A DNA stretch of 64,000 bases from Isurus oxyrinchus (lineage: Eukaryota). Shown here in pieces: positions 384 to 58,357 of this stretch. The notes beneath the pieces were generated by a model. That model saw only the letters and a program-made list of their open reading frames with translations. It was not told where the DNA came from and ran no database searches. Position 1 is the first letter of the stretch, and every line of letters begins with the position of its first letter. The stretch lies in NCBI GenBank assembly GCA_026770705.1, contig JANJGN010000013.1, positions 57,660,001-57,724,000 of the forward strand, read 5' to 3'. The translations under genes and the position numbers were made by a program.

Positions 384-3157
384 GTAAGTAAATTATTTGC
401 TGCGGGCACTCTTTAAAAACACTAAAACTATCGGTTTGGTAGGTTGAATTAGAGCAAAGCAAGATTATAGTTCTTAAAATACATTTATACAGGGCTTAGT
501 GAGTGAGTGTCCTGTGACATACAAAAGATAGTCAGGCATAAATGTGGCCAATTTTAAGGAGAGTGTGCAGGCTTTAAAGAGGCAACAAGGCTAATCCTTT
601 CTCAGATGAAGCCATACTGCCAGGTTTTAAGTTGAGAGAGCGGGAGTGGAGTTCGGTCCACTGGAAGCTGCCCCGAATGGCCTGGCGGAAATTTGCAGGG
701 TCATGTTCCGTATTCTTATAACAAGATGGAAACAGATAATTTCATCTTCCCGTCAGTCGGTAGCCTGAGGGCATCAGTTGAATGTCAATGCTAGAAGGAT
801 AGGGTAGGATATATTCTTCAACGAAGGGACTGTTCGGACTGCTGAGTCCCAGCCTTAATGATGGGGCGAGAGGAACCATCATGGTGTTTAAATGGAAAGT
901 GGAGAAGCATTTAAAGAAGGAAAACCAAATGTTTGAGAAACAGACACTGTGCACGGGCCTTTCAAAAGGCGCGATTGGCCTCGTTCTGTGCTGTGTAATT
1001 CTAAGGCGCGATTCTTCTGTGCTCTATAATCCTAAAATTCCATGAATCCCACACGGTTTTTAGATTGGCAGCCCCGGCGCTGATTGCCTCGCTCAAAAGC
1101 CTAAAATGCACATTCAAAACTTTAATTCCACTCAGCTTTAATCCCCATTTTTGGATTGAGAAAGTTAGTGTGGCAAGTTGCTGCAACTGAATCTCGTCTT
1201 CAAACTCAGTGGAAAACGTTCAAAGCAAGATGCTCAATCCCCCATTTCACCATAATCCCCTTTGACTACAATAAGAAAACTGGTATCAGCTAGTGATAAT
1301 GATCAACACCCATCCAGTTTCCGCACAACTCAATAACAAACATCAGTATTCAACATGACATCTATTTCCGTAACACGTCAATGGATCATTATCTTCCACC
1401 CGATGAACTGTGTGTGCGTATCTCGGAGTAGTGTTCAGATTGTTGTACCTGCTTCTTTTATTCACTCAATTGCACTTTGCTGCTAATTCTGCGATTAGCC
1501 TGAGAGGAGGGATATTACTGAAAACTTGGGGACTGTATTGCCATTTTAACTTGGTTTTTCGGCGGCATCGAAATGAAATGGACTGAGATGAGATAGAAAA
1601 TAGAAAATGCTCTTTCATATTTTCAGTTAGTCCTCTAATAATAGAATTTTACTACAAATATTGGTGTAAAAACAGTCCGATTAAAAACACTCGTTTAGCC
1701 AATAATAGAAACTGATGGCAAAAGCTGCTCAATTAACCCACGAGATTTCAGATATTTCAGTATCATGGTGTTCAGCTAAACTCCGGGTAACGTAGGGAGA
1801 TCATAATACTCTGATGAAAGGGCTGTCAGAATACCCGGTGCGTCAGCCCCCAAATTACAATGTCAGAAAAGTAAAGCGACCTTGTGTGTTCCGACTCTCA
1901 GAACGGCAGGAGATCGTTAAGCCGGCACGGGCAGGTCTGGTACTGCTGAGACCGGTACAACTGACACCACATCTCAATGCCGCAACCAATTGTGGTGGTC
2001 CAGCCTTTAGTTCTAGAATTGAACAAAAGAGTAATGCTTCAGCCCTTTCTTCGTTGTTTTACATGAGATAAGAACTGTAGTGCATGGTACAGCGGCCAGT
2101 TAAAGAAGCAAGAAATTGTTATAGTTTGTCTTCCATCTTCTTTCACTGGGCGATCTTTTATTGTGACAATCATGGAATTATTTCTGTTTAACAATAAGAT
2201 AGAAAGAACTTGCATTGGAATAGCGCCTATCACGACCTCAGGACATATGAGAGCGCTTCACAGTTAAGTAGGTATATCTTGTTTTCAGGACAATCACATG
2301 ATCATTAGAAATATTGCAGCTAACTTGGTTGAGCGATAAATATTGGCCAAGTCACGTTTAGTCTTATTACTTTTATATATTGAGGTTGTTGGGTTATTAG
2401 TATATAATATAGGTATAATTGGCTGCATAGCAAACGTTGTTTGATGGAAAAAGTTTTATGTTTAATGAAAATGTATCATTGTGACACCAAAGAGAGTATT
2501 TTGAATGTGATAGAATAGTTATCTTAAGTGTTACACATTAAATTATAGTCGGGAGGGGTGGGGCTTGTAGGGATTTTGTGCGGGGTGGGGAGTGCGTGAG
2601 TGAGGACTGGTGAGAAACATTCTGCAAGCCAGTGGGGAGCAAAGTGGCTTCGCCACTTATTGTGCCGAAATCCAACTATTAGCCCAGTATTTACTACTAA
2701 CGTGAAAAGAAATGCAAACTGGAAATTGCTTAACACTTCGTTAATATATTTTTTTAACAGGAAGTTGTTTGGACTCGAGTGTTCTGAGGTAGATCTTGCA
2801 GAATCTTTGCTCTCAATTTTGTTCCAAGATTTATTCCGAATACCGATTAATTGCTTTTTCAATCCTTACATTATTTTCTGTCCTCGTTGTTTCGCTTTGA
2901 TTCATTTTCCTCTTAAGAATTTGCATGTGTTCCTTGTCGTGCAGAAAAAGTAGGAATATCTTCACAGGTAATATATATTGTCCAGGACCGCCGGCCCCAG
3001 GAGTTGTGCAGTTAACACCAATGAGGTTCCGTTGTGCTAAATTCCTCATAGCTTTGTAGAGTAACGTGTAATTTCCAAAGATTGCACAATGTAAGACATT
3101 GATTCCGACTTTTATGTCAATGAAGAGTGAATCTTCTTTGTCTTATCCACTTTCCAG

Positions 3158-3480
3158 ATCCACGGGTCCCCTCTGTCTCCCTCCTTCCGCCTTCATCGGA
3201 TCAAATCACAGCGAAGAACAAGGCGACCCTGGTGTGTTTGGTGAGCGGTTTTAACCCTGGAGCTGTGGAGATTGAATGGACTGTAGATGGCAGTGTCAGG
3301 GGCAATGGGGTTGAGACCAGTCGGATCCAGCAGGAGAGGGACAACACGTTCAGTGTGAGCAGTTATCTGACTCTGTCAGCCTCAGACTGGAACTCACACG
3401 AGCTTTACTCCTGTCTGGTTAAACACGAAACTCAGGCAAACCCGTTCCGATCAAGCATCTCAAGATCCAGCTGTGTGTGA
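3158..3480 (+). CDS. Ig light chain constant exon, cluster 1, intact
   Basis: Acceptor TTTCCAG ends at 3157, phase-compatible with the VJ donor. Reads PRVPSVSLLPPSSDQ...ATLVCLVSGF...IEW...SSYLTLSASDWNSHELYSCLVKH...SSCV*, with both intradomain Cys and the penultimate interchain Cys. Confidence 0.97.
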
Positions 3481-3664
3481 TTCAAACATGTTTTGAGCTG
3501 ATTTGTTATGCCAGTAGTGTAGTTTTAACAAGTGCTGTAAAGTGGAACATTTTAAATCAAAACAAGTTACAGTTTGTTGGCTCGGTCTCGCTGTCTGTAT
3601 TTTACAATGTGTCCGCTCTGAACTGATCAAAGTTTCAGTGTAATGTTGCAAATACTCGCAGTTT

Positions 3665-3670
3665 AATAAA
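3665..3670 (+). terminator. polyadenylation signal of cluster 1
   Basis: AATAAA 185 nt after the stop; positionally conserved in the paralog (40035-40040). Confidence 0.8.
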
Positions 3671-4159
3671 GTGACTTCCGTTATCTTAGGCGTTATTGTT
3701 ATTTTCTGTCTGCTCCCTCTGCAACAATTCATAGCAATTTTCTAATCGTGGCAAATCGTGAAGTTTTATTTTTTGCTGCATTCTGCGCATTTATGTAAAG
3801 GCAGTGACATCAGTGGGAATAATGAAATGATGTACCAGTACACATGAAGGAGATCTTGAAACATATTTTTAAAGATAGACCATGAGGGGATAGAGCTGGT
3901 CGCTATGTCCGTGCTTATGACAAGAAGTCACAGCACTTAGCGCTTCTAAATCACTAGTTTACAGAATTTCAGAGTAAATTTCGTGACCGCCTATCTTTTG
4001 GATGCCGGGGCCAAACGCCGTGCATTTGTTTTTTCAAAACTGTCAGATAACTTTAATTGTTTAGCAAAGCATATTTTGGCGCAGTTTCGATTAGTCTCAA
4101 TCAGATAGCCGCAACTTTAGATTGGGTGAAGCCTTTGACCGAAAACTGCCCAGATCACA

Positions 4160-4402
4160 TAAAATCAAAATACTGCGGAGGCTGGAGATCTGAAATAAAA
4201 TCAGAAAGTACTGGAAAAGCTCAGCAGCTCCGGTATCAGATGTGGAGAAAAAAACAGAGTTAACCTTTCGAGTCCAATATGACTCTCCTTCCAACATGAC
4301 CCTGGGAAATAGAGTCATACAGACATGAAACGTTAACTCTGTTTCTCTCTCCACAGATGCTGCCGGAACTGAGTTTTACCATTATTTTCTGTTTATATTT
4401 CA
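4160..4402. mobile_element. old Penelope-like terminal fragments arranged as an inverted pair
   Basis: aatactgcggaggctggagatctgaaat...gttaacctttcgagtc is followed by the inverted gaaacgttaactctg...cagatgctgcc...ctgagtttt, a diverged version of the termini at 28865-28976. Confidence 0.7.
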
Positions 4403-5584
4403 GCTGAGACAAGATTCACGCTTTTAAAATTCAGCGTCACGCTAATCGTAAACTCGGTAAAGTTTCCCTTCAGTAAATTGTCTTCCTTATTCCGACTGAT
4501 TTAGGACTACAATAAATAAATAAGGCCATAAAGAATGCAAACTGTAAGTAACTTAATACCGGCCTAAAATTATTGAATAAACTGACAGGGGCAAAGGGGG
4601 CCATCTTAGAAGTGAGATGTGGTTTCCTGACAGCAACCATTTCATGCGTTGTTACGCTGACAATGAATTAGGCAAGCTGCCAAGAAATAGTTTTATTGCA
4701 GTGAACCTCAACTGTTTTTAATTGAAGACTTTAAACGAATCAATAGCTATTTTAAAAGATTTAACTAAATTAGAACTCCTCAAAAATTATTCTTTTAAAC
4801 ATATATGACACAGCAAATTTGAAAAAGTACAACCTTCTGTTCAGTTCAACATAATTACTGGATCTACTTTGTAACAATGCAATGTATAACTATGTAGTGA
4901 AACGTGTGTCTGTAACATCAGGTTGCAAGCTGTATGTCTTGGTTATGACTCAGATTTCAAGTCAAAGGTTTGACCCTTGATAATTAAAAGCACTGACATT
5001 ATTTCACCTTTTATAAGTATATATATCCCAAGCTGTATTATGTTACATGTTTAAGTCATTACATTTAAATAAGATCAATTCTTTCGAACCCATTTATGGT
5101 TATTTATTCAAAAGAATGACCCTAGAATTTAATAACAATCAGGACAAGCCTGCACCATTGGAATGTTCGTGGCTGTGGTAACAATAGATAAAGACCAGAC
5201 AGCTTACATGAATAGTTGGATACCAGCCCAGAAACAGGCAGTTAAGTAAGATGGTCCTCAATTATAATATAAGTAAAAATATATTAATTAATCCATAGTT
5301 TTGTCATAGGATTGGCTTTTAAACTCATGCAAATTAATACTAAAGTTCCCAAAGGAATTTTGCATTAAAGATTAGCATAAAGCCTTCTTACATACTTTAA
5401 GTAAAAATACAGACACAAAATGGCTATAAAGAGTGCATTTAAATCTGATTTGAACAAAAGCTCATGCAAATTATGGAAAGACGTGTGTCCAAAATCAGAT
5501 TGAAAAAAATTGCTCCATTATCAATATTAATTATGCACAAAGGCCAAGACCAATTAAGCTAAATTAAAGAATACGTCAGCTAAT

Positions 5585-8500
5585 TTTTTTTCATAAAATG
5601 TGCTTTATTCATAAAAATATCTGAAGAAAATTACAAAGCATTTCAAACTGGTCATCACAAAAAGTGCGATCATATTCAACTTTTCCACATGGATCATGAG
5701 GTGCTTCAAAACAATCAACGAATGTTACAAGCATTTCAAAATGATCATTCCAGACAATCAGACAATGCAATGGTGTTCAAGTTATCAACATCGATCATGT
5801 TGCACTTTGAGGAACTTCAATACAATTATGATCCATTTATTATTCAGTGCAACATTCATTGTGGGTCATGCAGCCTGAGGGGTCGATACAATTCCCAGTC
5901 CATCGGTGCACTATGGCAGTCAGGTCTTAGACAGTGACCTTTCGCCATTGCACCTTTGTGGCTGCTGCCCCAAGCTTTAGTGCGTCACTCAGCAGGTAGT
6001 CCTGGACCTTGGAATGTGCCAGTCTGCAACACTCAGCTGCGGGCAGTTCCATGCACTGGAAGACCAACAAGTTGCGGACAGAACAAAGACCATCTTTCAT
6101 GAGTTGATTATCCTCCAGCTGCAGTTGGTGTTTGTCTCGGGGTGTGACCCTGAGAACAATCTGTACAGCATAGAGTCCTGTGTCACAGCACTGCTCAGGA
6201 TGAACCTTGACAAAAACCGCTGCATCTCTCTCCAGACCTTCTTTGCAAAGGTACATTCCACAAGGAGATGAACAACGGTCTCTTCCCCAACACAGCCACT
6301 TCGAGGGCAACATGGGGAGGGGGTGAGACTCCTGGCATGTAGAAAGGGTCTGACAGGGAGGGCCTTTCTCACCACCAACCAAGCTACATCTTCGTGCTTA
6401 TTGGAAAGTTCTGGTGATGAGGCATTCTGCCATATGGCTTTGTCCAGTCTGCCTGGGTACCGTACAACAGGATCCACCATCTCCTTTTCCCTCAGGGTCT
6501 CTAGGACGTTATATGCCCATCACCGTCTGATGGACTTGTGGTCAAAAGTGTTTCTCTGCATAAATTTTTCCAAGGGGGTACAGAAGGTACAGCAAAGTCC
6601 AAATGCTTGGAGCGTTCTGTGGCAGCGTGGTCAGACCCATCCTTCACAATACCAGGGTCAGGTAGAATCTCAGCATGCAGTGACATTTGGTGTTTGCATA
6701 CCGAGGGCCTACGCATAGCTTGATGCAGCCACACACAATATGGCCATCAGGATGAAGGCAATGTTGGGAATATTTTTCCCCTTCAGTTAGAGGTTTATAC
6801 ATTGTGTCCCTGCAAATATGATCGATTTGCAGCCTCCAGATAAAGCGAAAGATGACTTAGGTGATCGCCACTGCGCAGGAGTGAGAAATGGGCCAGACCT
6901 GCGCCTCATACAGTTACAGCAAGAGTACCTCACACCTGATGACCAGGTTCTTACTTGCAATGGACAGGGAGCATTGCTGCTACATGCCCAGTTTTAATTT
7001 CATCATAGTCACTCGGTCCTTCCAATTTCTAACACATACCCTGGTCCCTCCAAACCATATCCCCAGCACTGCTAGGCCATCTGACCTGATGTTGAAGTAG
7101 TCAAAGGATTGGTCAGCCCAGCTCCCAAAGGACATGGCTTCACTCTTGCCACAATTTACCTTGACTCCTCAGGCCAGTTCAAAATGGTTGCAGATGTTGA
7201 TCAGCCTGCACGCTGACATGAGATCCGAGAAGAAGCTGGCAACATCGGCCATGTACAGGGAGGCTTTGACCTGAGTGTCTGCACTGCCTGGGATCATCAC
7301 TCCTCTTATGCCCGGATCCTTCCTGATGGACTCAGCAAAGGGTTCTATGCAACACACAAACAGGACATGGGAGAGAGTGTAGACCTGCCTGACACCAGAT
7401 TTAATTGGCAAGAATTCTGTTTCCCACCCATTGATTGAGACTGCGCTACATATGTTTGTGAAGAGCAGTTGGATCCAGTTAGAGGTTTGGGAGAGCACAT
7501 CCACCATGTAGGTGTGCAATACTCTGTTAAAGGCCTTTTTCTGGTCCAGGCTGATGAGGAAGGTGTCCACTCTCCTGCTCCATACATAGGCAGTCATATT
7601 CCTGAGTAGCACAAAGCTGTCCTGCTGGGTACAGTGCAGGTCTGGTCAAGGTGGATCACCAACTCCAGAGTGGACTTGACCCGATCTGCGATGATGTTGG
7701 ACAAAATCTTATGGCTGACATTCAACAGTGAGATGGGTCGCCAATTTCTAATTTCCCCCCTTTCCCCCTTGTGCTTGTAGATGAGGGTGATGATGCATTT
7801 AGTCATGGATTCTGACATGCAGCCAGGCAGGATCATACTCTTGTACACTTCTAGCAGGCCTGGGCCGATGTAGACCCACAGAGCTGAATACAACTCAGCC
7901 GGCAAGCCATCGCTTCTGGGAGTTTTACTCTTCTTGAAGGACTCAAGGGCCTTAGTCAGTTTGTCAGGAGTTAGCAGTTTGTCCAGCCTCTCTCGAGTAC
8001 TGTCATCTAAGACCTCCATGTTAGAGGGCAGGAAGGCCTGGGAGGCCGTGCTGTATGTGGGCTTCACGCCATACAATCCGACATAATAGGATTTGCTGAC
8101 GCTCAAAATGTCAGACTGCAATGACTTTACTGAGCCATCTTCTTCCTTCAGGCTGCTGATCACAGGGCTCTCTCTGTGTACCTGTTGGAAGAAGAAACAT
8201 GAACACGTCTCATCCTGCTCCACACACAGGGCTCTGGACCGCAAGATGAACCTGGAGGTCTCCGAGGCAAAGAGCGAGTCTTGCTGGCTCTTCACAGCTT
8301 GGAGTTGCTCCTTGACATCGACCCCCATTGACTGCAGTCAGAACAGGTTCTGCATGCTTTTCTGGAGTCGGGACATTTCCCTCTAGCTTTATGGACACCT
8401 TTGAGGGTAAAAAAACATCTTGATGTTCTCCTTAATCGCTTCCCACCATGTGCCACAAACTCAAGGAGGGTTTTCACAGATTGCCAACCCTTGTAATACC

Positions 8501-9180
8501 TTTTGAGTTCCCCAATGTTCTCTGGGGTCAGCAGTTGCACTTTCAGCTTCCATGAGCCCCTGCCAACCCTCTGGCCTTCCTGTAAGTGACAGTCAGTCAG
8601 TAGGAGACAGTGGTCAGAGAAGAACACCGGCTTGACGTCGGTGGATCTGACGGTGAATGCAGAGGACACAGAGGGGAAGTCTTTCCTGGAACGGCTGGAC
8701 CCGTCTGGCCATGACCAGGTGTATCTCCGCTGCGCTCCGTCTGCAGGGTTGCTGAAAGTGACGTGCAGCTTGGCATCCTTTACTGTTTCCATCAGGAGTC
8801 TGGACGTGGCATCCGGTCTGCTTTCGGCCCTGCTGGATCGTCCAGCTGCGTGGATGATACAGTTGAAGTCATCGCCCAGAATGACCAGCCTGGAAGACGC
8901 CAGCAGCGTTAACGTACCGTCAGCCACTCGCTGTTTTGAGCTGGGGCATACACATTAATTAACTGGAGCGGAGCATTCTTGTATAATACGTCTGCCACGA
9001 GGAGGCGTCCGCCCACCACCTCGTCAGCCTCGGAGACGGTGAAGTTGTCTCCCCGCAGCAGACTACCCAGGCCGGTGGAACGTGGGTCGTTTCCTCCCGA
9101 CCAGATCGATGGCCTATGGGGCTACCATCGTGACTACTTCATTTAGGGATTGAGGTGCAGTATCGCACAGTCCTGCAGAA
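5585..9180 (-). mobile_element. Tx1-like (L1 clade) non-LTR retrotransposon, ORF2 with frameshifts, 5' truncated
   Basis: Minus-strand ORF pieces: AP endonuclease (ILGDDFNC, YTW, SDH), RT (KTPRSDGLPAELY, WRPISLLN, LISLDQKKAF, SGVRQ, LYMADV), and C-terminal CPRSGC..EETVVHLLVEC zinc knuckle. Poly(A) signal and tail are seen as T-run/TTTATT at ~5585-5610. Confidence 0.9.
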
Positions 9181-9182
9181 TA

Positions 9183-9695
9183 TGTCAGCGAATGAAATGT
9201 TGACAACACCTCTTTACCACGTGGAGGGTTTTGCATCTTCTCCGGTGGTTACAAAAGCCCATCTCGAGAGACACCTTTTGCTAGCCGTAGCCTGACAAGG
9301 ATACTTGTTCGAAAGTCTTCAAGGGCTATTGGAAGTGATTCGTAGACTTATGTTTCTTCCCGGGCTATGTGTTTACAAATTAGACCAGGCTAGAGAGAAG
9401 ACAGAGAATGATTTCGATTACAGACTCATGTTCTGTCTATTAAAACTGAGAGGATTTATTTGTATGGACGTATGATTCTTATACATTTGGACTTAACTAA
9501 TTCTGCATTATAACCTTGTACTAATTCATATTTCGCTTCGAATAAAACGTCTTTTTATTTACTATCCGAAGAGTCTGGCCTTATTTTGTAGGTCCACCTC
9601 TCGTTCGAACCTGAGAGTGAAAAATAATTTTTGGTGAATTGGGATGATTTCAAATGGGCATCCATCCAAACATTCTTGCACATTGGCGGCCACGA
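9183..9695 (+). mobile_element. probable LTR (TGT...ACA, 9183-9682) with primer-binding site
   Basis: Starts with TGT exactly where LINE endonuclease homology stops. Has TATTAAAA at ~9438 and AATAAA at 9541, ends ACA, and is followed after 1 nt by TGGCGGCCACGA (PBS-like). Confidence 0.55.
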
Positions 9696-10339
9696 TATCA
9701 GGGGCGGGATAAAAGAATTGATATCCAGATAACTGAATTTAAAGTCTGTAAAAAGAGAATGGGTGTTTTAAGCCGTTGGTGCAACTGCTTTGACCTTGAA
9801 AGAGACAGAGAGAATGGAACCAGAGATCTACTCTTGGTGCATTAGTAACTGAATTTAGCAAATAGAATAGTTCAGCAAGTAGAAATACTGCTGCTGCGTC
9901 GACTGATGTGTCAGCGCCGCAGATAAACCAAATTGCAGTGCCTCGAGTCTCCCCCCACCATCACCACCGCCACACGACAGAAAACTAAGTTGTTAACTCT
10001 TTGCTGCCTGGTTTTAAGTATGTTGCTACTCATTGCTGTCTGGTTTTAAGTATGTTGTTACTTTTAATGTGGGTATACCTTGTACTTGAATTGACTTAAG
10101 CGCAGTAAAAGGTTTTGAGAGAGAGAGGTTAGACATCATTACTGACACACACTGTCCTGTAGTAGAACTGCTTGGTTACTAAAACAGCGCCACACCACGT
10201 TGGCGTGCAAAGGTTCTGGTAGAACAAACAGGGACAACGTGGACAGCTAAACCAAGCTAAAAACAAGCTTATGTATCACGATCAGAAAATCCAGGCAACC
10301 GAAATTTGTTAGAATAAAATCCATTTCAATCCAGTATCA

Positions 10340-11757
10340 TGTGAAGTTGGACGCCATGTCTAGTCCAGCAGAGGTGGCTGTAAGGGATATTGGGTGCATT
10401 GGTTGTGGTCTTCCAAAATTACATAAATTCTGGAATGGTGCCTGCAGATTGGAAAGTAGCAAATGTATCCCCACTTTTTTAAGAAAGGAGAATGTTAGAA
10501 TCCATTACATCGAATGTGATAATTGGGCACTTTGAAAATGGTGGTAGGATTGAGCAGAGTCAAAAATCAAGCTTGATAAACCTGTTGGAGTTTTTTGAGG
10601 ACACGACTAGCAGAATAGATAAGGGAGAGTGGTGGATGTAGTACATTTTGATTTTCTGAAGACTTTTGATGAGGTCCTACACAGGAGGTTAGTAAGCAAA
10701 AATAGAGGACATGGGGCATTGGGCATGATGTACTGGCATCGATTGAGGATTGGTTAACAGACAAAAAACAGAGTGGGAATAAACGGCTCATTCTCAAGTT
10801 CGCAGGCTGTGACTAGTGGGGTACCTCAAGGATCGGCGCTTGGTGCCCAGATATTCACAATCCATATCAATGAGTTGGATGTGGGACCAAATGTAATATT
10901 TCCAAGTTTGCTGTAGGTAAGAATGAGTTGTGAGGAGGATGCAAAGAGGCTTCAAAGCAGGTTAAGTGACAGGGCAAGAACATGGTGGATGGAATGTAAT
11001 TTGGAACAGAAGTGAAGTTATCTATTTTGGTGGTAGAAATAGAAATGCAGATTACTTGTAAATGGCGAGAGATTGGGTTGTGTTTGTATCCAAAGGGATT
11101 TAGGTATCCTTGCTCATAAGTCACTGGGAGTTAACATGCAGGTGCAGCAAGCCATTGAGAGGCAAGTGGTATGCCGGCCCTTATTGCAAGAGAATTTGAG
11201 TACAGGAATAAAGAATTTGCAGAATTGCATGGTGCCTTGATGAGACTACATCTGGACTACTGTGCACAGTTTTGATCTCGTTACCCAAGGAAGGATATAT
11301 TTGCCATCGAGAGAATGCAACCAATAATTCATCAGACAGATTCCTGTGGTGGCGACATTGTCCTATGAGGAATGATTGAGGGGTCTGGTCCTGTATTCTC
11401 TACAATTTGGAAGAATGAGAGGTGACCTCATTGAAGCATAAAAAATTGTTGCAGGGCTGGACGGCCAATATGCAGGAAGAATGTTTGCCCTTGCTTGGGG
11501 ATGGAGAGGGGGAGGGGTGGTGTTCTGGAACCAGGGGACACAGTTTCAAAATAAGGGGCAGGCCAATTAGCTGTGGTGGAGGAAAATTCAACTGAAGCGT
11601 CCAAATGGAAATTAGACTGTTATTTGAAGAGGATAAAAGTGCTGGGGTTTTGGGAGTAGGCAGTAAAAGGGCACTAAGATACATTCGGAGAGCTGGTGCA
11701 GGTGTGATGGGCTGAATGGCCTCCTTGTGCACTGTAAAAATTCTGTGATTCTGTGAC
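10340..11757 (+). mobile_element. CR1-type LINE RT/3' fragment, degenerate
   Basis: Remnant W..ANV.P.F.KG and SGVPQGS.LG motifs, R.RGDLIE.YK C-terminus, and (ATTCTGTG)n tail at ~11740. Confidence 0.85.
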
Positions 11758-15792: not shown

Positions 15793-15799
15793 CATCATA

Positions 15800-36295: not shown

Positions 36296-36297
<2 letters not shown>

Positions 36298-36469
36298 GGG
36301 GGGGGGGGGTGGAGGGTGGGTTGGGGGGGTGTGAGTGAAAAGGAGCAATTTATTATAATGATACCAGTGCTGTGAGATTTTAGTTACGACTGAACAAGGA
36401 TAAATTTCGTTCCACAAGAAACTTATGGAATTTTCTGATGAAAATGTCAGAATTATAAACCATTCTAAC

Positions 36470-39797: not shown

Positions 39798-42700
39798 TTT
39801 AAGACTTTTATGCATTTATCTGTTGTATTATTAGAGAAGCTTCTTTAAAACTAAATCCTTGAATCTTTAAAACTAAATCCTTGAATCAGCTGTTGCATGT
39901 TGGATTTTAAATGGAACATTTCAAATCACGATAGTTGTACCGTTTTGTCGGCTGCAACCCGCTTTCTGTATTTTTCAGTGTGTTCACCTTGAAATCGTCA
40001 AAGCTTCAGTGTAATGTTACAAATATCGCATTGCAATAAACTATCTGTTCCATTATCTCAGGTGCCGACATTCCTTTCTGCCCGATATCCCTGAAGCCAT
40101 TCATGGCAACGTTCTAAATTTAACTAAAGAGTTACGTTAATTCCTTATGACATTCGATACACTTCTTGTGCATTCAGTGTCATTAGGCGGAATAGAGAAA
40201 TTATATACAAGATTCATGGCTTTAATGTAACATTTCGTGAAAGTAATCTTACAATATATATTTTTAAATAGACCTAACGGGTTTGTGCCCGTACAGGAAA
40301 GGAGCTGAATGCTGTGTCCGTGCTTATGGCAAGAATTCAAGGCATGTTGGGAAAATAGTTCGAAATCATCTGGCTATACAAATTCAGAGTAAACACTGTA
40401 CTTGCCACATTTTTGGACACCCAGGACCTAATCCCGTGGTGCAGTTTCCAACATTGCATGACTTTATTTTTCCAAAACTATCCGACAATTTTAATCATTG
40501 TTCATCATGGTTATATTGAAATAAGTGCCATGATAGTCAGTGGAACGATCTGAACTACAGATTATGTAGAGCCTTTAATTGAAACCAACTCAGATAAGAA
40601 ATGTGTTTTTAAAATTCTGCTTTCACTGATCACGAACTCAATACAGCATCCCTTAAGTATATATTCCTCCTTCTTCGGACTGATTGTGGAATACAAAATA
40701 TAAATCGCTAAAAGTCGCAACACAAGTTGCGAAGGCCATCTCAAGTGCAAAGAAAAGAATACGTTCGTTAATTTCTAATGACCTAGCACACAAGGTAGGG
40801 TTTTTAGTGAGATTTATATGCTATCCACAATGCGAAAATTACAGTGAAGGACTGGAGAAGGTTTGGACAATATTTGCAAATTTGTTACCAGAATTGGGAT
40901 GACGTATCTGACAGGTAAATCGAGCAGGTTGGATGGATTCTTCTCTGGAAAAGTGGTGACTGTGGACCTTTAATCGGGAGCTTTACTATTATGAGAAACT
41001 GCGAAGCGGCGGACATAGAAAAACAGTTTACATTGTTGGGGAGTCCCGACCAAGGATTGACAAAGCAACGATAGCCACCTACGCATTAAAATAATTTGTT
41101 TAGGTGAAACAATGTGTTGGTATTTGGATGGGAGGTAGAGAGAGAAGGAAGTGACTGAAGTTTCATCTTCTGATTACCTGGATGTGGCAAATGGATTTCT
41201 GAAGGATCAGTTCATGCCCCTCAGTTTTTTACCATGGTTTGGATGAAGGCCGAGAGCGTTGTACATGGATCGCTACAGATGGTGCAATGTTAAGAGTCGC
41301 AGTGAGTTGCGTGACTCCACGGTGGAAATCCCATGGATAGATGAAGTAAATTTTCAAGATTATGGCAGGCGCCGTTCAACGGGGAGGAGGGAGGAGCGAT
41401 ACATTTGGGGGTGGGGGCGGATGAACTCCTCCAGTTTGAACCTAAAATAAAGAAATCTTTACTTAATGTTGAGAGACCAGGAACTGTGGATCAGAGAACG
41501 GATTTGGCTGTTCATATAAGCAAAACGCCGAAAACTAGCCGACAGATGCAAACAGTAAACAAAACGGTAAATATAATGTTGGCGTTTATTACAAAGGGGT
41601 TGGAACTAAAATGCGAGGAAGTAATGCTTCTCCTTCACAGAATCTCAGCCAGATTACATCCGGAGTTTGGCATTCAGTTTTCGGCGCCAAAACAGATGAA
41701 ATATATATTGGTCTTTGAAAGGATCCAGTGCAAATTCATTAAAAGTTATCTTTATTTTAAGTGCTGAACTGTGAGGACAGATTTCAAAGACGTGGCTGGA
41801 GCTTCTTGACTTTTAGGCTGGAGGATTGATCTAATCCAAGTATTTAAAATGATTAACCAATGAGTGTTACGGAGACTATTTCTACTCCGTGACGCGATCC
41901 AAAAAAAGAGGGATGAAATTTAAATATACTGTGAAATCAGGAAGTACTCACAGACACATGGTAGGTGAAATCTGAAGTGCCTCCCGCAAAGGCTATGGAT
42001 AATGGGTCAATGGACTGAACTCAGTAGATCTTTATTACGTTAAGAGTATCAAGAGATATAGAACAAAGAAATGAAAGAGAGCTTCAGATCAAACATGATT
42101 GAACGGCGAATGCGGAGCTGAATTGCTTGTTTCCACGCTGCGAATTCTCTGCATTTGCATACAACGAGAATCTATTTCAATAACAGAATAGCATCACATT
42201 CTATTCAGTGCCAATAATCCGTATTGATCTGCACTTAGGTGTGGACATACACGAATCTTGAGAGTTGTTTTCAATCATAATTCAATTATTCCGCCCCCAT
42301 CTGAAATAAACCGGAAATGCACTCGAGATATTTTTGTGGCTCATTTGGCTGCCATCCACAGGTGCAGCAACACAGCCAACAATTTAATCGGGTCGCCGTG
42401 GGGCCACACCTGGAGTACTGTGCATATTAGTTTTGGTCTCCTTACCTAAGGAAAGATGTACCTGACTCACAGGGAGATAATAGAGTTTCAACAGATGTAT
42501 CCCAGGATTTAAAGGATTGTCCTATAAGGAGTGATTGTGTAGATTTAGCCTGTATTTTCTAGTATTTAGATGAATGAGAGGTGATCTCATTGAAACATTT
42601 AAAATGTTTAAGCTGCTTGAAAGGTAGGTGACAGGAGGCTTTCTCATTTCTGCTGAGTCTAGAAAGAGCAGGCCGTTTAGACTGAGATGAAGAGAAATTT

Positions 42701-47840: not shown

Positions 47841-50800
47841 GTCCTGGATGATGTAGAATTTCTTGAGTGTTGTTGAAGCTGTACTCATCTCGGCAAGCGG
47901 AGAGTATTCCATTGCACTCCTGACTTCTGCTGTGTAGATGGTGGACAGGCTTTGAGGAGTCAAGAGTTGAGTTACTTGCCGCAGGATCCCTAGACTCTGA
48001 CCTGCTCTTCTAGACACAATATTTATTTGGTTAGCCCTGATCAGTTTCTGGTCAATGGTCAAGTAGCGTGTTAAAGGAGTACAGAGAAGTGGAGTCATGA
48101 AGAGGTTTGTGGAAAGAGTTCCAAAGCTTCTGAACTAGATGTGTTTGAGTGAAGGAAGTAGGAGATGCCCATGTGCTCAGAGTTGGGGCACTGCAGCATT
48201 TCTACAGGGTTGTATGGCTTGAGGAGATTACAGGACTAATTAAGGGTCAGGCCATGGAAGCGTTTCAACATGAGCATAAGAATTTTAACTTCAAGGCATT
48301 GGCGAACCAGTGGTCAGATTATGTCGGCGACCACAAGAGTCATGTGAAATGCTCCAGTTTAAGAGACAGTTAATAAAAATTAGAGCAAATGCAAATGCAG
48401 GTAACATATTTTATTCGATAGGGAAATGGTTAGGAGAGAGCAGACAGAGATTTGAGATCATGGACACACATTTAAATTAGCAGAATGAGGCAATTGGTGT
48501 CCACCAGGTGTCTGTATAGAGGCTGCAACTTTTCACTATAAGTAAAAATGACTTAGTGTTGTCAGCAAATTTAAATACACAGCTCTGTCTATTCCTCCAC
48601 CTATGTTTGTTGGCACAGCATATGGGAGAAGAAAGTTGAAAACCGGCACTGATAGATTATTTGATTGGGCAGAATGCTGAATGATGCAATTTAACATGTG
48701 AAAGTCTTAGAACATCGGCATAGAAAGAAATATCAGAGTATTGTCTCAATGCAGGAAGGGCGAATTAAGAAATATGGAGTTGTGTCCTGCTCTGGGCACC
48801 TCAGAAAGGATATATTGAACTAAGATGTGATGCAATGAAGGTTCACCATAATGATACCAGGGCTTACATATTACACGATTAAGGAATGCTGCACAGCCAG
48901 TTAAGAATATTATGAGGCGATCTAATTCAGGTGTTTATGATGATTAAAAGAGCCACGAAGAAGGGGGAAAATCCGAAACTTTCAGCCAGGCCATTCAGAA
49001 GTGAAGTTTGAAAACAGTTAGTGGAATAAAGTGAAGTGAAACTCTAGAACCATTTCCACCAAAATGCTATTCAGGCAAGATAGTTTGTTTGCTTTAAAAG
49101 AGACCTGTGGATTTTTGTGAGGCAAGGTTATAAAAGATTATGGAACCAAAGTGGGTCAATGGAGTGAAGATTCAGATCAGCCATGATCTATTGATTGGTG
49201 CATCAAGGTGGCCTACTAACTTAAAAGCATTAGAAATAAGAGCAGGAATAGGCCATTTACCACCCCCCCCCCCCCCCCACCCCCCCCCCCCCCCCCCCCC
49301 CCCCCCACCCCGGAAGCACGCTCTGCCATTCAATAAGATCATGGCTGATCTGATTGTGGCTTTAACTCCACTTTCCTGCCTACCGCCTGTAACCTTTGAC
49401 TCATTTGCAGATTAAAAATTTGCCTACTTCAGACTTGAATGACTCAGTCTCCAGTATTCTCTGCAATAGCAAATTCCAAAGGTTAACAATCCTCTCAGAG
49501 TTGAAATATTTCTTCATTTCTGTCTTAAATGGGAGATCCCTTATTTTTAAACTGTGCCCCTAGTTATAGATTCCCCAGGAGGGAAGAAATCCTCTCAGCA
49601 TGCACTCTGCCAATCCCCTCAGAATTGTATACATTTCAATATAATCCTCTCTCCTTCTAAACTCCAGTGTGTGTAGGCCCCACTTGCTCATAAAACGACC
49701 TTTCATCCTCGGAATGAAGCCTGCGAGCCTTCTCTGTACTGGCTCGAATGAAAGTTTTTTGCTCCTTAAGTAAGGAGGCTAGGCCACGGAAAGGTTCTCT
49801 AGGTATGGTCTCTACAATGCCCTGTACAACCGTACTAAGACTTCCTTACTTTTATTTTCCATGCCTTTTCTATTAAAAGCTAAAATATCATTTATCTTCC
49901 AAATTACTTGATGAACCTACATGCTAACTTTTTAAGTTTCATGTACGTGGACACCTGGATCCTACTGTATCGCAGCATTAGGCAGGTTCTCTCCATTTAT
50001 ATAATATTCTGTTCTTCTGTTTCACCCACCAAAATGTGCATCCTCACATTTTCTAACATAATATTCCATCTAACGAATTTTTGCCCACTCAGTTAACCTA
50101 CATATATCCTTTTGCAGTCTCTTTGCATCCTCCTCACAATTTGCTTCCGTGCTTATCTTTGTATCGTCAGAAAATTTGGCGACAAGGCAAACGGTCCCTT
50201 CACCCATGTTATTAACATAGATTGTAATAAGCTGAAGTTCCCTGTGGCACTCTACTAGTTAAAATTTGTCAATCTCAAAATGACCCATTTATCCTGGCCC
50301 TCTGATTCCTATTTGTTAGCTAATCATTTATCCATGCTAATATACTATCCTCAAATTCCTAAGCTCATATCTTGTGTAGTAAGCTTCTATGAGGCATCTT
50401 TTTGAATCCCTTTGAAAATCCAAATACACTACCTTTGCTGGTTCCCATGTATCCAACCTGTCTGTTCCATCCTCAAAGATTCCAATAACTTTATCAAGCA
50501 TGATTTCCCTTTCATATAACCATGGTGACTCCGCTTGATTGTATTATGATATTCTAAATTCCTGTGACTACTCAATGTGTCCAGGTGAGATTTTTAACCC
50601 AACTGCATCACAGTCTCTCTCTAATGTATCATAACTTACATTGTCCCCTGTTACATCCCTACACAACTCCCTTTAAGTTAACATTATGTTTTCAGCACTA
50701 CCCCAATTATGCTATTGCTTCCTGCCAGGTTATGCATGTGCCTTGTTGTGTCTGCTCCTCCACTCTGAATTTCTTATTTTCATCTACAACTACCTCAGCA

Positions 50801-53299
50801 CCAAAAAAGATTTGCGCCACCACTCTTTGGTCTTACTTTTCTGTTTCTTTTCGAATTCTTTTGGGTGAAAGAACTCTTTCTGTAGCATTTGAACCAACTC
50901 GCTCAGGGGGTTGCTGTTCACCATCAATAACCCTGCTGCCAGACGGTAACCGATGTGGTTGGAGTTGCATGTGCGCATATTCTCCTAAATTACACTCGTT
51001 TCCAGAGTTTCCTTCAACTTAGTTCAATTCTTGTTCCAAATTCTCTCTAATACACTTTGGGCTTAGCTCAGGGGTGATCAGTTCTGGAATCGCTGGTCAA
51101 GTTTCCACTGCTTAGGCTAAAGGATCGTTCTACATATGCTGCCAGAATGTTGAGTTTTCCAACATTTTCAGTTTTTATCCACTGCTTAGGATACTGTCAC
51201 AGCTTGTCAATACTATTCTTCCAAAAATAATTAACAGATTTGAAGGGGATGTGTAATATAAAGAGGGCCTCCTTCCCAAAACCTCTCCTAAAACACTCTT
51301 GTCCCTCTGTCCTTGCAAACTACTGCTCCATCTTCAAATATCTTTTCTTCTTCAAACTGCTTGAAGGTATAGTCATCTGCCATATCCATGCCTATCTTAC
51401 CAGGAGGAATTCCATGTCTGAATTCATCCAATCACGTTTCTGCTACTGCCAACAGAACTGAGACAACCCTTATTTATATCAAAAGTTGCATTCTCTTCAA
51501 CTGTAACAGTGGTACGCTACCATTCCTCATAGTTTTTGGCCTGTCTTTAGCCATTGACATGGTTGATCACACCATCCAACGACTCTCCACCATCCATCTG
51601 TTGCCTGGGCTTGGCCTCACCTATCTTCATCCTTATTTATTAAGTAACAGCCAAAGAATTACTTGCAATGACATCTCTTCCTACTCCTATGCTATCACCT
51701 CAGGAGTACGCTAACAGTATATCCTTGCCCATCTCCCCCGCCGCCACCACTCCCCACCCCCATTCCGCCCCACTTTAATTTCCCTGCTCCCCCTTGGTGA
51801 CATCACCTGAAAGCACATCAGGTTCTGTATGTACGTTGAAACCACACAGCTCCACCTCAACATTGGATTCCTTTACTATGCTGAGTGACCAGAAATCTCT
51901 TCCAACTATTGGAAAGAACAAAGCTGTTGCTTTTGCTCCCATCATGAATTTCATTCTCTAGTCACCAACTTCATCCCTCTCACAGGCAACTCCCTGAGGT
52001 TAAGCCAAATTGTTCTCATCCTTGCTGTCGTCTTTGAGCCCTAGATATGGAGTGGAATTTTATGGTTACCCTCCAGCCTTTGAATCTATTGAGGCCCTTA
52101 AGTGACTAATCGATAGCCATGAAAGTGCCTCATCCTGCTCGCTGCCATTCTTGTCCATACCAAGTTGCTAACCTAGCAGCTTTAGCTGTGTGGGCTGGTG
52201 TCGGGAAAGGGGAGGGTACCTCTGTTGGGGGACCCCTGCACATCAGAGGCACCCTTTCACCAAGATTATACCCTCCTTTATCCCCATCACTTCTCCTGCT
52301 GGGGCCTGCCAAGCAGGCCTTACCATATCCACAATTATTTACTTCAACCTGGATCTATTAGATTTCTTCTTTGGGGACCAGTTTTAGTCCAAGTAGCGGG
52401 CACCGCTCAAACCTACACAGTTGCTGGGCGTCGAATTGGCCGGCAGCCCTCCTAGGCAGGAATGCTCCCCAGATGGGTGTGCAAGTCGTGCCCTCAGCCA
52501 GTTTTCACCCCAGTGAATGTTAAATGGACGCGGAGGCATTCCACAACTGGTGGGGCAGGCAAGAAATCCTGCCCTTGCAACTGTAAAGTCTAACCTGATG
52601 TTTCCCCTGGCTGTGGTATCTAAAACACGGGGGATAAGACTCAAGATGGGTGGCCGATTACTCAGGACTGAGACGAAGAAGTGTAAAGCTGTCCCATTCA
52701 TCCCAGACCGCAGCTGTTTCTCAATAATCCTCAAATTTTCAAGTATAAATTCTATTCACTTTTGGAAGTGGCTACTGAGTATGCTCCATCATCCTTTGAA
52801 ACCTTGCATTGCAGATCATAGCAACTGACTACATAGTATTTTGTCACCAGCTAAAGAAAAGAGGTGCGCACAGAAGAGGTAAGCATATGGCATTGAAATT
52901 ATTAGTGGCTAACCTTGCATTGTGCTCACTTTCTAACACATCATAGAAGAATGCAATGCCAAGTGGTCACTTGGCCCATCATCATGCTCTTTGAAAGAGC
53001 TAAACTATTATTCCCACTTCACTACTTGACCTGCATTACCATGCAGATGTCTCAACTTCATAAAAGTATCCAATTTCCCCCTTTAGAGATTTAATTGAAT
53101 CTGTTTCCTGCACCCTTTCAGGCAGTGAATTCCAGACCCTCACAACTCGCTGCCTGTGTTTTCCTTATGCCGCCTTTGGACTCAAAATGTTAACTCTGTT
53201 TCTCTCTCCACAGGCGCTGCCAGAGAAGTTGAGGTATCTGGCATTTTCTATTTTTATTTCAGGTGATTCTTCCCTATTTAATAAAGAGAATAGCTTAAT

Positions 53300-55880
53300 A
53301 AAATAAGCGTTGGTCTATAGAAAGTGAGTCTGGGGAATTAATAATGGAAAATAGGGAGATGGCAGATGAATTAAACAGATAGTTTGCATTGGTCTCCATG
53401 ACAGTAGACAAGTAACATTGCAGAAGTAGCTGCAAGTCAGGAAATGGAAGGGATGAAGGAGCTGAAGAAAATTATAATCATCAGGGAAATGGTACTGAGC
53501 ATATTGCAAGCTGACAATTCCCTGGGTCCTGATGGACTTCATCCTAGGGTTTTAAAAGAAGTGGCTAGTGAGGTAAATGATGCATGGGTTTGAATTTTCC
53601 AAAATTCCCTTGGTTCTGGAAAAGTTCCATTAGATTGGAAAATACTGGATGTAACTCCTTTATGGAAAAAGGGAGATAGACAGAAAGCAGGAACTACAGG
53701 CCAATTAGCTTTTAACACCTGCCATAGGAAAATGTTGGAAGCTATTATTAAAGATGGTATAGCCCAGCACTTAGAAAAATTGGAGGCAGCCAGGCAGAGT
53801 CAACATGGTTTTGTGAAAGGGAATTCATGTTTAACCAATTTATTGAAGTTCTTTGAAGAAGTAACATATGCTGTGGATAAAGGGGATGCACTGTACTTAG
53901 ATTCCCAGAAAGCAATTGATAAGGTGTCACACCAAAGATTATTGTGGAAATTAAAAGCTCATGGTGTAGGGGACAACTTATTAGCATGGATAGAAGATTG
54001 GCTAGTTGACAGAAAACAGAGAGTAGGCATAATTGGGCCATTTTCTGGTGGACATGATGTAACGAGCGATGTGCCACAGGGATCAGTCCTGGAGAATCAA
54101 TGTTTTACATTCTTTTATCCATTCATACAATGTGGCATCAATAGTTAGGCCAGTATTTATTGTCCATCCATAACTGCCCTTGAGAAGGTAGGGGTGAACT
54201 GCCTTCTTGAACTTCTGCTGTCCATGTGATGTAGATACACCCACAGTGCTCTTAGAGAGGGAGTTCCAGAGTTTTGACCCAGCAACAGTGAAGGAACAAT
54301 GATATATTTCCAAATCAGGGTGGCAAGTGGTTTAGAAGGGAACTTGCAGGTGGTGGAGTTCCCATGTGTCTGCTGCCCTTTTCCTTCTAGATGGTGGTTA
54401 TTGTGGGTTTGGAAGGCAATGCCTAAGGAGGCTTGATAAATTCCTGCAGTGCATCTTGTAGATGGTACATGCCGCTGTCATTGTGCACCGGTGGTGGAGG
54501 GTGTGAATGTTTGTGGATGGGTTGCCTATCAATTGGCCTGCTTTTTCCTGGGTAGCGTCAAGCATCTTGAGTGGCGTTGGAACTGCACATTCAGGCAAGT
54601 AGAGGACATTCCATCACACTCCTGATTTGAACCTTGTAGATAGTGGACAGGCTTTGGGGAGCCCGGAGTTAAATCACTCACCACAGAGTTCCCAGTATCT
54701 AACCTGCTCTTGTAGCCACAGTATTTATATGGCTAGTCCAGTTCAGTTTCTAGTCAATGGTAACCCCAAAGTGTTGATAATGGGAGTTCACTGATGGTAA
54801 TGCCATTGAATGTCAAGGGGAGATGGTTAGATTGTCTCTTGTTGGAAGTGGTCGCTGCCTGACACTTGTGCGGCACAAATGTTACTTTTCATTTATCAGC
54901 CCAAGCCTGGATATTATCCAGGCCTAGCTGCATTTGGGCATGGACTGCTTTAAATTTATTTTAATGACTTGAATGGGGGAACTAAAGTTATGGTCACTAA
55001 ATTTGATGATGACACAAAGATAGGTAGGAAAGTAAATTGTGACGAGGGCTTAAGGAAGCTACAAAGGGATATTGATAGGTTTGCGAGGCGGTAAATATCT
55101 GGCAAATGGAATATAATGTGGAAAAATGTGAAATTGTCCATTTTGGCAGCGAGAATAAAAGGAAGTATTTTACTTAAATGGTGAGAGATTGCAGAGCCCT
55201 GAGGTGTAGAGGGATCTGCATGCCCAATTGCACGAAGCACAAAAGGTTAGTATGCATATACAGCAAGTAATTAGGAAAGCTAATAGAATGTTATTGTTTA
55301 TTGCATGGGGAAATTGAAAGTAAGGAGGGTATTCTTCAGTTATACAAGGCATTGGTGAGACTACATTTGGAGTACAGTGTACAGTATTGGTCTCCTTATT
55401 TAAGGAAGGATGCAATTGCGTTGGAAGCAGTTCAGAGAATGTTTACAAGAGTAATACCTGGAATGGGCAAGTTGTTTTATGAGGAACGGTTGGACAAGCT
55501 AGCCGTCTATCTAGTTGGCGTATAGAAGAGTGAGAGGCGACTTGATTGAAACATACGAGACCCGGAGTTGTCTTGACAGGGTGGATGTAGGCTTAAAAAT
55601 AAGGGATCGTCCATTTAAGACAACCATGAAGAGAATTTTTTCTCTCAGCGGGTTGTGAGTCTTTGGAACTCTCTTCCTCAAGGGGCGGTGGAAGCAGAGT
55701 CTTGAATATTTTTAAAGCAGTGGTAAATAGATTCTTAATAAGCAATGGGTGAAGGTTATTGGGGGTAAGCAGGAATGTGGAGTTCAGGTTACAATCAGAT
55801 CAGCCATGATCTTATTGAATGGGCGAGCAGGCTTGCGAAGCCAAGTGGCCCACACCTGCTCCTAATTCGTATGCCCGTAT
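53300..55880 (+). mobile_element. CR1-type LINE ORF2 remnant interrupted by an antisense CR1-like 3' fragment (~54105-54955)
   Basis: PGPDGLHPRVLKE, SQHGFVKGNSCLTNLL, DVPQGSVL; the sequence resumes ...INDL...KFDDDTK after the insertion. Confidence 0.88.
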
Positions 55881-57070
55881 GCCTATGCCCATTTTGGAAG
55901 TTTGCCTCTATCCACCTGATGTCTGTTACAATCCTCCTTATTGCTTACTACGTTTCTGAATTCTGTGCCATCTATAAACTTTGACATTATACATTATGCC
56001 AAGTCCATGTTGTTAATAGATATTAAGAAATGAGGTGGTCACAACCGAACCCTGGGAGCACCACTGCCCAATTACCCCTAGTCTAAATAAAACACCGTTC
56101 ACTTCTACTCTACGTTTCCTGTCCAATTTTATATCTCCGCAACCAATGCCCCTTTAATTTTCATTTTCATTTGCTGGCAAGTCTATTATCTCGCACTTTT
56201 TGTAAATTCGTATGCACAGCATCAACTACTCCATTATTTTATGAAATAACTCAGCGAGGCTATTGACGCACATTTTGCCTTCAGTAAATACTTGTTGACT
56301 CTCAATTATTGATCTATATTTTGTCATGTGTCGAATAATTCAAATTAATTATGATAAATTTTGGGGAAACGCATGAATTAATATGACGTCAAAATCTGAG
56401 AGAAATTGAATAAACTAATCGCATTTGACATCTTGTGCGAGGGAAATAAAGGTGAGGGAGCACTATTTTGTACCTTTAACCCCCGCTCCGGTTGCTTCCA
56501 CGATATGTTTTCCATAATTCATCGCTCATTCTGCCCTAACACAGTGACATTTTTTATATAGAGCGAGCAATTATACAAACCGCTACTAAATATCTTTAAC
56601 ATCTTTGGCACCGTCCCAACGTTGTAGAGAGACCCAATAAATGGACCCAATATTAATAATAGGTTTGAACCAGACCTTGGGGAGTCTATATCAATTGATT
56701 TGATCTCTGTTGTAGCGAAGATGTCGGAAGGCACTATTATTAATGTATTAAATCAATTACTAACTGAGAGATCGACAATATTATAATATGAATGGGAGAA
56801 CTGAGGTTTGGGTATTAACTTCCAAAGTAATATTTTGTGTTCGACACAAGAAAGTTAATTATTTTCTCCGAGACATGTCGACATCTGGGACTGATTACTG
56901 AGATATATGGTCAGTATGGGTTCCTCATTGATGTCAAAGGTAAACTGAAAAGATCCAGAGTTATATAGCTAAATTCTACGAGGCGCCTTATTCCCCGTTC
57001 CTCACTAAGAAGCCGGGGGCGCGGCCGCCGACTGTAATACCAGCTGCCCATGTTGTGGATTTTCGATGGG

Positions 57071-57132
57071 GGGGCGGGGCAGGAATCAGAGAGCTAACGG
57101 CCAATCAGAGAATGGCAGCTCTCCGGAACTTC
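57071..57132. promoter_or_regulatory. promoter-like motif cluster (GC box, CCAAT box, ETS-like site)
   Basis: GGGGCGGGGC at 57071, GGCCAATCAG at 57099, CCGGAAC at 57123, in a locally CpG-rich patch. Confidence 0.45.
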
Positions 57133-58300
57133 GGGGCGTTCATAATTCTCAAGGCACCTTCTCATAATGCATTCTCCTCACTTCGAGTTATCTGATTTAT
57201 CATGTATGTACACCAAACACTTTAAATTGTTACTTTTGGTTCGCGATGCTTTTGATTCACTCAACTTCATGTGCAGGAGAAGAATGTTTGCGCTGCTCGT
57301 CTTCATACGCCACTTGTTAATGCAGTTACGATGAATTTAAAATACACTCCAGGCTTTGGGAATTTTAACAACGGTGCATGAATTCCGGGGCGACCATTCA
57401 ATATTTGAATGGGAATAATTGCAAGGCTATGACAAAGAGCACGGATGTGGGACAATTTGGAAACCTCTTTCAAACAGCCGGCACAAAGCGGGTGGATCGA
57501 ATTGACTCCTTTCTGCGGAAACGTTCTATAATTATTGCTTCTTTTTTCCGTTCATTTTACATTCCCCTTCTACTGGACTTCTAATTAAGATTTATACTTT
57601 CCAACAAGCTTACGACGACGTTATATGGTAGCAATATAGTTTCTCACTGAGGTCACACAGAACAAGGGCGAATGAACCCACCCAAGCACAGACACAATGT
57701 ATTTCAATCAGTATACAAACCTAATTTAGCAAATGTAGCATTTGATAGGTTATATTATTAGCAAGCGTTCACCCATTAATTTTGTAAAATCGTTGTTTCC
57801 ACCAAGTGTTAGAAGTTTTGTATAAATTTGTAAAGGTAACAAAGAACAGAGAGCGTAATTTGGACGTTTTAAAATGGTCATAAATCAATGATAATTAATG
57901 TAAGAAAAGAATAGCATCAATTGAGACAATGAAAGAATGATTGTATTATACTGCAATTACACAAAGAATGTGTGATGATTGCAGAGTCAGCACACTCTCG
58001 CATTACACCCAATCAAACAAACTAAATAACTGGACAGTTTTGTTATAATTTCAAATAGAGCAGTTAAAACAACTGGCGATTTGATTGAAATATATAAGAT
58101 CCTGAGGTGTCTTGTCGGGTGGATGTGGAGAGGATGATTGTGGGAGAATCTAGAACGAGGGGTCACTGTTTAAAAATGAAGGGCCACCCACTTAAAACAG
58201 AAATGAGGCAACAAAAAACAAAAAAACAACCTTTAAATTCGAGTTTTGCTCTGTTGACGTTCCCTATTGATATAATAGAGGTACACCCAAGATTCTTGCA

Positions 58301-58357
58301 TCAGATACAACTGGGCCTCTCTATACCTGTTTTAAGTGGGTTTGCTAGAGCATCTTG
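58301..58357 (-). pseudogene. 3' remnant of a fourth light-chain C exon (cluster 4)
   Basis: Reads QDALANPLKTGIERPSCI* versus C2 HEALANRLKKSIEKSNCI*. The flank 57160-58300 is collinear with 22580-23553. Confidence 0.88.

Follow-up and report, generated by a model that had tools for sequence, protein, structure and literature searches.

Separate duplications of different ages as the probable origin of a germline-joined immunoglobulin lambda array in Isurus oxyrinchus

Immunoglobulin (Ig) lambda genes of cartilaginous fish (type II, NS3) are described as clusters of one variable (V), one joining (J) and one constant (C) segment, with V and J already joined in the germline (PMC5192425, PMC4279169), and two reviews state germline joining for every cartilaginous-fish lambda gene studied. 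Shark Ig light-chain (IgL) genes also undergo birth-and-death evolution, as in the NS4/type III expansion (PMC2193156). The locus described here shares the one-V, one-J, one-C cluster, the germline VJ joining, and the duplication and loss of clusters. It lies on contig JANJGN010000013.1 of the 4.98-Gb Isurus oxyrinchus genome, and the window, that is, the whole stretch of 64,000 nucleotides analyzed at positions 57,660,001-57,724,000 of the forward strand (G000:C13:57660001-57724000), is the middle of a shark Ig lambda array. Its first V, V1, matches a Carcharodon protein at 93% and named sandbar-shark lambda chains at 75-77%; therefore, on protein comparison, this is the shark Ig lambda (type II/NS3) locus, made of germline-joined VJ-C clusters. 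We propose that the array probably arose through separate duplications of different ages, most of them of a single cluster, with independent losses of copies and with the core of the C exon overwritten by gene conversion. The DNA analyzed comprised 344 kb and 320 kb around two groups of C1-like exons on C13, and 200 kb of background was used for repeat masking. The features on which the argument depends are as follows, in window coordinates (UTR, untranslated region; CDR, complementarity-determining region).

-27.5 kb, plus strand: A2, a cluster to the left of the window
1..11570, plus strand: right half of a ~24-kb single-cluster unit common to C1 and its younger paralog A2
42..383, plus strand: V1-J1, an intact germline-joined lambda VJ exon (Pfam V-set)
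760..4521, plus strand: intron and 3' flank of C1, with homology to C3 (36504-40705) and, outside the window, to A7
3158..3480, plus strand: C1, an intact C-lambda exon, with a poly(A) signal at 3665
19680..23553, minus strand: C2 3' UTR and flank blocks homologous to those of C4 (19680-19843, 20936-21117, 21689-21771, 22773-23553)
23554..23871, minus strand: C2, a C-lambda exon with a 5-nt deletion
26353..26896, minus strand: leader and joined V2-J2, with frameshifts in CDR1 and CDR3/J; octamer near 27027
36333..40724, plus strand: C3 unit, with an intron remnant, a broken C exon (39506-39797) and a 3' UTR
48104..58299, minus strand: C4 3' UTR and flank blocks, broken up by repeats (48104-48269, 50393-50654, 57350-58072, 58201-58299)
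58301..58360, minus strand: C4 stump, the final 19 codons of a C2-type exon with their stop, abutted by repeat sequence
61137..63857, plus strand: region upstream of A7, the third cluster of C1 type, with its VJ 1.8 kb beyond the right edge of the window
65776 (window-equivalent), plus strand: VJ of A7, the C exon of which is lost

The first-pass annotation had read the window as a tail-to-tail pair of light-chain clusters duplicated as one 35-kb unit and then decayed stepwise. Its observations were borne out. The four C exons stand in the order + - + - (C1 3158-3480, C2 23871-23554, C3 39506-39797, C4 58360-58301). The C1 intron and 3' UTR match C3 in nine collinear blocks at 60-82% (760-4521 versus 36504-40705, C exon included; offsets 35.7-36.4 kb), and the C2 3' flank matches C4 at 72-77% (22773-23612 versus 57350-58359; offset 34.6-34.7 kb). 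The main blocks of both pairs reached E values of 1e-68 to 1e-108, with identities of 67-76% versus 56-58% for unrelated or shuffled controls under the same aligner. C2/C4 homology reaches further, as 20936-21117 and 21689-21771 match 50393-50654; the 21689 block has two matches genome-wide, itself and 50572, and the 19680 block (19723-19843) is an old repeat and weaker evidence, for which the genome search returned adjoining repeat only. C3 thus belongs to the C1 type and C4 to the C2 type, the C4 stump being 82% like C2 and 61% like C1. The copies are in four states, with C1 intact, C2 frameshifted, C3 without a V and C4 cut down to 19 sense codons and a stop, and the broader description of Ig light-chain clusters in birth-and-death decay holds.

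One tail-to-tail duplication of 35 kb, as proposed, was not supported: the two pairs have diverged unequally, C1 is closest to A2, C3 is equidistant from C1 and A7, and no homology was found in the spacers. On repeat-free 3' sequence the divergence K was 0.44 (0.38-0.51) for C1/C3 and 0.29 (0.25-0.34) for C2/C4; the C1/C3 intron gave 0.43 (0.39-0.46), and MAFFT alignments gave 0.53-0.55 for C1/C3 and 0.32 (0.27-0.36) for C2/C4. Similar divergence had been expected of the two pairs, and the ranges found were 0.43-0.55 versus 0.29-0.32. Separate duplications are favored because these intervals are disjoint with two aligners. Closer paralogs elsewhere had not been expected either, yet C1 is closer to the single-cluster A2, 30 kb to its left, with which it shares 84-90% over ~24 kb containing one cluster (3402-11570 versus window-equivalent -24805..-16535 at 83.7%, and 3082-3412 at 90%; K ~0.11). 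This shared unit stops at 11570, 11 kb before the C2 flank.

A7 has upstream region, V, intron and 3' flank in common with C1 and C3, and 61137-63857 matches the C1 upstream region (-3236..-557) with E values down to 1.8e-22. Three-way K values among C1, C3 and A7 were 0.527, 0.520 and 0.521 over 1851 columns, with two-versus-one sites of 269/275/276 and bootstrap shares of 0.23/0.41/0.36, which is star-like. The first-pass annotation expected (C1,C3),(C2,C4) from a tree of C exons and UTRs; in a tree of tail and UTR the second half was recovered (100/100), whereas C1 joined A2 (100/100) and C3 stood without resolution beside A8, a cluster right of the window. (C1,A2) and (C2,C4) are the only firm groupings of this tree, and of the two proposed pairs only C2 and C4 are reciprocal closest paralogs. 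A tree of C exons, suggested for the same purpose, is nearly a star in its core (C1-C2 94% versus C1-C3 86%), and it would mislead on duplication history because the core bears the marks of concerted evolution. No unique homology was found by blastn or nhmmer --max between the spacers 4522-19679 (15 kb) and 40706-48103 (7 kb), which are old and about half repeat, and none was found between the head-to-head spacers. Pieces of long interspersed nuclear element at 10588-11732 and 46586-47810 (offset 36.0 kb) were considered as shared insertions and rejected, as each has better matches elsewhere.

There are three levels of divergence, at K ~0.45-0.5 for C1/C3/A7, ~0.3 for C2/C4 and ~0.11 for C1/A2. 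Under separate duplications, C1, C3 and A7 would have split first and nearly together, C2 and C4 after them, and A2 would be a still later tandem copy of C1 alone. The likely engine would be unequal crossing-over between direct C1-type repeats around an inverted C2-type gene, and the copies would have died independently, through deletions, frameshifts and insertions of retroelements. Conversion in the germline would have acted on the C core, with tracts ending near codon 88, so that only tail, UTR and intron would keep the history; C3 would have left conversion long ago. Over 1391 letters of the C2 5' region, an organism labeled B shows 70 differences from the window; if rates were equal, the C2/C4 split would be about six times, and the C1/C3 split about nine to ten times, older than the split from organism B.

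The stepwise gradient of decay stood in part: the four states are real, but they show no order in time, the copies being rather a set of independent losses. They form no time series, as C2 probably broke recently. V2 is 92% like the intact Carcharodon protein P0064, the C of the Carcharodon orthologue is 97% like that of C2, and it is because this orthologue is intact that C2, frameshifted in V, J and C in the assembly sequence, is taken to have broken recently. In the C3 unit, no V, J, leader or promoter remnant was found, and the C exon carries 14- and 17-nt deletions plus stops.

Several observations weigh against separate duplications. A genome-wide search found no closer partner for either the C3 intron or the C4 flank, both units keep the order and orientation expected of a two-gene cassette, block order and offsets are compatible with a single cassette, and the spacers contain C2/C4 homology to depths of 4 and 10 kb. 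K depends on the aligner (0.43 versus 0.53), and the C2/C4 flank could have been reset by later conversion, or local rates could differ, in which case unequal K is not strict dating.

Two other histories of duplication deserve consideration. In the first, the unit had the other phase, either a head-to-head pair (C2,C3) giving (C4,A7) or an unequal crossover within C1-type repeats that made C3 an A7/C1 hybrid. The phase of any multi-gene unit is not readable from a + - + - + array, and this order would itself be the expected product of a crossover. C3 and A7 share 3' flank beyond the C1 match (40843-41039 versus 76837-77025), their first intron block is 66% alike versus 58% and 63% (33 versus 18 and 16 sites), and their 3' K of 0.39 (0.30-0.49) overlaps the C2/C4 interval. 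However, taken over all shared blocks, K for C3/A7 reaches 0.52, which matches C1/C3 and far exceeds C2/C4, there is no clear switch point along C3, and no homology was found between the head-to-head spacers, so we consider this history rather unlikely. The second is the tail-to-tail duplication of (C1,C2) into (C3,C4), rescued by supposing that the spacer was later erased and that the C2/C4 flank was converted or evolved slowly. It would account for the collinear blocks at similar offsets, for C2/C4 homology extending into the spacer, and for C3 and C4 being without closer partners. We nevertheless judge it improbable in view of the gap between K 0.43-0.55 and 0.29-0.32, a C3 as near to A7 as to C1, the want of spacer homology, and the fact that the best-resolved duplication of C1, that of A2, took one cluster. 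Such a cassette would add little to known birth-and-death evolution.

Separate duplications, then, are the history we carry forward, and with them comes the evolution of the C exon. Its core (codons 18-88) is 94% alike between C1 and C2, 89-95% between C1 and A8 or the seven exons B3-B9 of the right-hand group, and 86% between C1 and C3, and yet intron ends and UTRs do not align between clusters whose cores are 89-95% alike. Identity at fourfold sites is 28/30 in the core versus 12/29 in V for C1/C2 (p=1.9e-5), 30/31 versus 23/34 for C1/A8, and 29/33 versus 9/26 for C1/B6, although B6 lies ~1.06 Mb away and has a very different V. Identity falls from 200 of 213 positions in the core to 35 of 57 in the tail (p=7e-9); the C2 exon has a core 94% like that of C1 and last 19 codons that are 61% like it. 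The raised synonymous identity is confined to a bounded tract that ends near codon 88.

V2 belongs to a lineage of 10 rows from 8 species (V tree, 100/98) that includes Heptranchias, Pristiophorus, Heterodontus, Mustelus, two Scyliorhinus species and Carcharodon. The cross-species comparison covered this lineage, the deeper V types of the right-hand group lying outside it, and the trees used 82 named hits minus Chilo_1 and Cmilii_77 (mis-annotated C), with the unnamed P0083 also left out. In eight of the ten V2-lineage proteins the C core was 85-99% like same-species paralogs versus 78-84% like V2 orthologues, at the protein level. As far as sequences can tell, the V lineages predate the split of the major shark groups while C cores group by species, and the core has very probably been homogenized by gene conversion with a tract end near codon 88. 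Speaking against this are the two remaining proteins, from two Mustelus V2 genes, with no within-species homogenization of C; a protein C tree largely without resolution; and strong constraint on C as an alternative to conversion, the species comparison being at protein level only. It is very improbable that the cores are so alike, on the same duplications, through strong purifying selection combined with a slow clock in sharks. Although C domains must pair with heavy chains and the V2 C exons of Mustelus cluster with those of V2 orthologues in Scyliorhinus torazame, fourfold sites are 88-97% identical in the core and 35-68% identical in V, flanks are no more alike than controls, and old V lineages share species-specific residues.

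The window is part of the left of the two groups of C1-like exons, at 57.60-57.75 Mb and 58.61-58.78 Mb on C13, ~0.87 Mb apart. The left group runs A1(-) A2(+) C1(+) C2(-) C3(+) C4(-) A7(+) A8(+), with two further members outside the window.

-58.5 kb (window coordinates, C exon), minus strand: A1, a split cluster at L035:1182-5450 (G000:C13:57601182-57605450), 55-59 kb left of the window
81381 (VJ) and 84317 (C), window-equivalent, plus strand: A8

A1 is unlike its neighbors. It consists of an octamer, a leader, and a V followed by CACTGTG-23-ACCAAAACT, then GGTTTTTAT-12-CACCGTG and J. Recombination signal sequences (RSS) of lambda type have a 23 spacer at V and a 12 spacer at J under the spacer rule. 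A1 has this V-23 and 12-J arrangement, whereas the split clusters sampled on C16, C36 and C12 have the 12 spacer at V. In X15 (putative RNA, with the same organism code as the best DNA matches), one 732-nt contig carries the A1 V joined exactly at the heptamer border, with J trimmed by 3 bases, 3 extra letters, the reading frame kept and J spliced to C. The joint occurred in one of four runs and was not among the contigs of X17, X18 and X19, which is no evidence against it. Orthologues at 72-89% are present in no fewer than six genera, namely Mustelus, Hemiscyllium, Chiloscyllium, Heptranchias, Stegostoma and Rhincodon, under automatic names only, and the next-best matches are all lambda-like at ~50%. 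A1 groups with genes of the lambda locus in the V tree with moderate support (90/89 and 87/80); the C tree did not resolve its place. From one junction in the contigs of one run, A1 appears to be a lambda-like gene that is still rearranging. The full picture is offered tentatively: lineages of V and intron that predate the main radiation of sharks may sit on one conversion-kept C core across inverted, megabase-distant clusters, and at the locus edge there may be a lambda cluster rearranged by RAG (V-23/12-J RSS), conserved from sevengill to carpet sharks and likely representing the unjoined ancestral state of germline-joined lambda.

In the window clusters, V1 and V2 have J joined in the germline without RSS, the V running into FGxGT and then a splice donor, and Pfam finds a V-set and one C1-set domain in V-J-C arrangement. 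Their V groups with sandbar-shark lambda V (96/90) and stands outside the light-chain types on C16, C36 and C12 of this genome, which we take to be kappa, sigma-2 and sigma. A sigma-2/NS5 identity for the window clusters was rejected, as protein comparison and tree place them with lambda. Further germline-joined light-chain-like genes, L117 (C326), L118 (C783) and L119 (C26), have long branches apart from the four sampled types. The right group (G000:C13:58.61-58.78 Mb) has nine C exons, B1-B9, and three divergent joined V types at 40-50% to V1; the cores of B3-B9 resemble that of C1 at 89-94%, and B6 and B8 are a single-cluster pair at 87%.

The leader exon and octamer of V1 lie just left of the window. 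An 877-nt contig of X15 (putative RNA) joins V1-specific to C1-tail sequence, and C1-specific contigs with V and C occur in X15 and in X17, both of them only putatively RNA, which suggests that C1 is transcribed. Among runs registered as RNA, none contained the C1 stretch. The X15 and X17 contigs included no C2-specific one, an absence that does not show C2 to be silent. The two Mustelus and two S. torazame V2-type genes are possible orthologues of C2 and C4, a relation on which the V tree gives no clear answer. The C4 tail is nearer than that of C2 to the tail (IERSSCI) of Mustelus V2-type P0069/P0089, a weak hint that C4 may have an intact orthologue in Mustelus. To the right of the C2 cluster, 30070-31024 is a 476-bp tandem duplication at 99.2% identity, either very recent or an assembly artefact.

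The A8 VJ (window-equivalent 81381-81683, L042) has a very short CDR3 and ends after FGKGT, where no splice donor follows; relatives with a short CDR3 are present in several sharks. In A2 (L038:2757-5194), A8 (L043:570-1965) and B8 (G000:C13:58751078-58751508), C-lambda is split by one young element family; the insertion site is identical, following the ELYS codons, and the target is duplicated over 10-13 nt. The copies differ in length, those in A2 and A8 are opposite in orientation, and the A2 copy has weak reverse transcriptase and GIY-YIG matches below Pfam cut-offs. The element is likely Penelope-like, and the ELYS site of C-lambda is suggested to be a recurrent insertion target.

Neither conversion of C-lambda nor a shark lambda cluster that rearranges was found described in the open literature searched, which included PMC13433984 and PMC12227049, and a prior description is possible. 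Compared with cartilaginous-fish Ig lambda as presented in PMC5192425 and PMC4279169, this array has mixed orientation, many pseudogenes, a split into two groups with ~0.87 Mb between them, a common C core beneath old V lineages, and one split neighbor. The account of NS4/type III (PMC2193156) has a separate expansion per species, whereas here old V lineages persist and C cores group by species. Within-species homogenization of C exons is common to C-lambda here and to the C domains of shark UrIg2; conversion in UrIg2 involves tandem exons of one gene (PMC12227049), while here it would link distinct clusters that lie in opposite orientation and as much as ~1.1 Mb from each other. Should conversion act on C-lambda cores within species, trees of C exons would give wrong dates for shark light-chain clusters, and the history would have to be read from introns, tails and UTRs only; conversion would also allow a single surface for heavy-chain pairing to persist beneath very old V lineages. 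A1 resembles the teleost lambda-2 IgL (PMC5985310) in being a low-copy rearranging cluster with lambda-like RSS. It differs in sitting within the lambda array and tending to group with lambda genes, and the same source reports that lambda-2 was not found in cartilaginous fish. A rearranging lambda cluster, if true, would overturn the review view that all cartilaginous-fish lambda is germline-joined and would provide a split reference for testing the origin of joined lambda genes. The array as a whole is a known kind of system, in which conversion of the C core is modestly new and the A1 neighbor is the more interesting.

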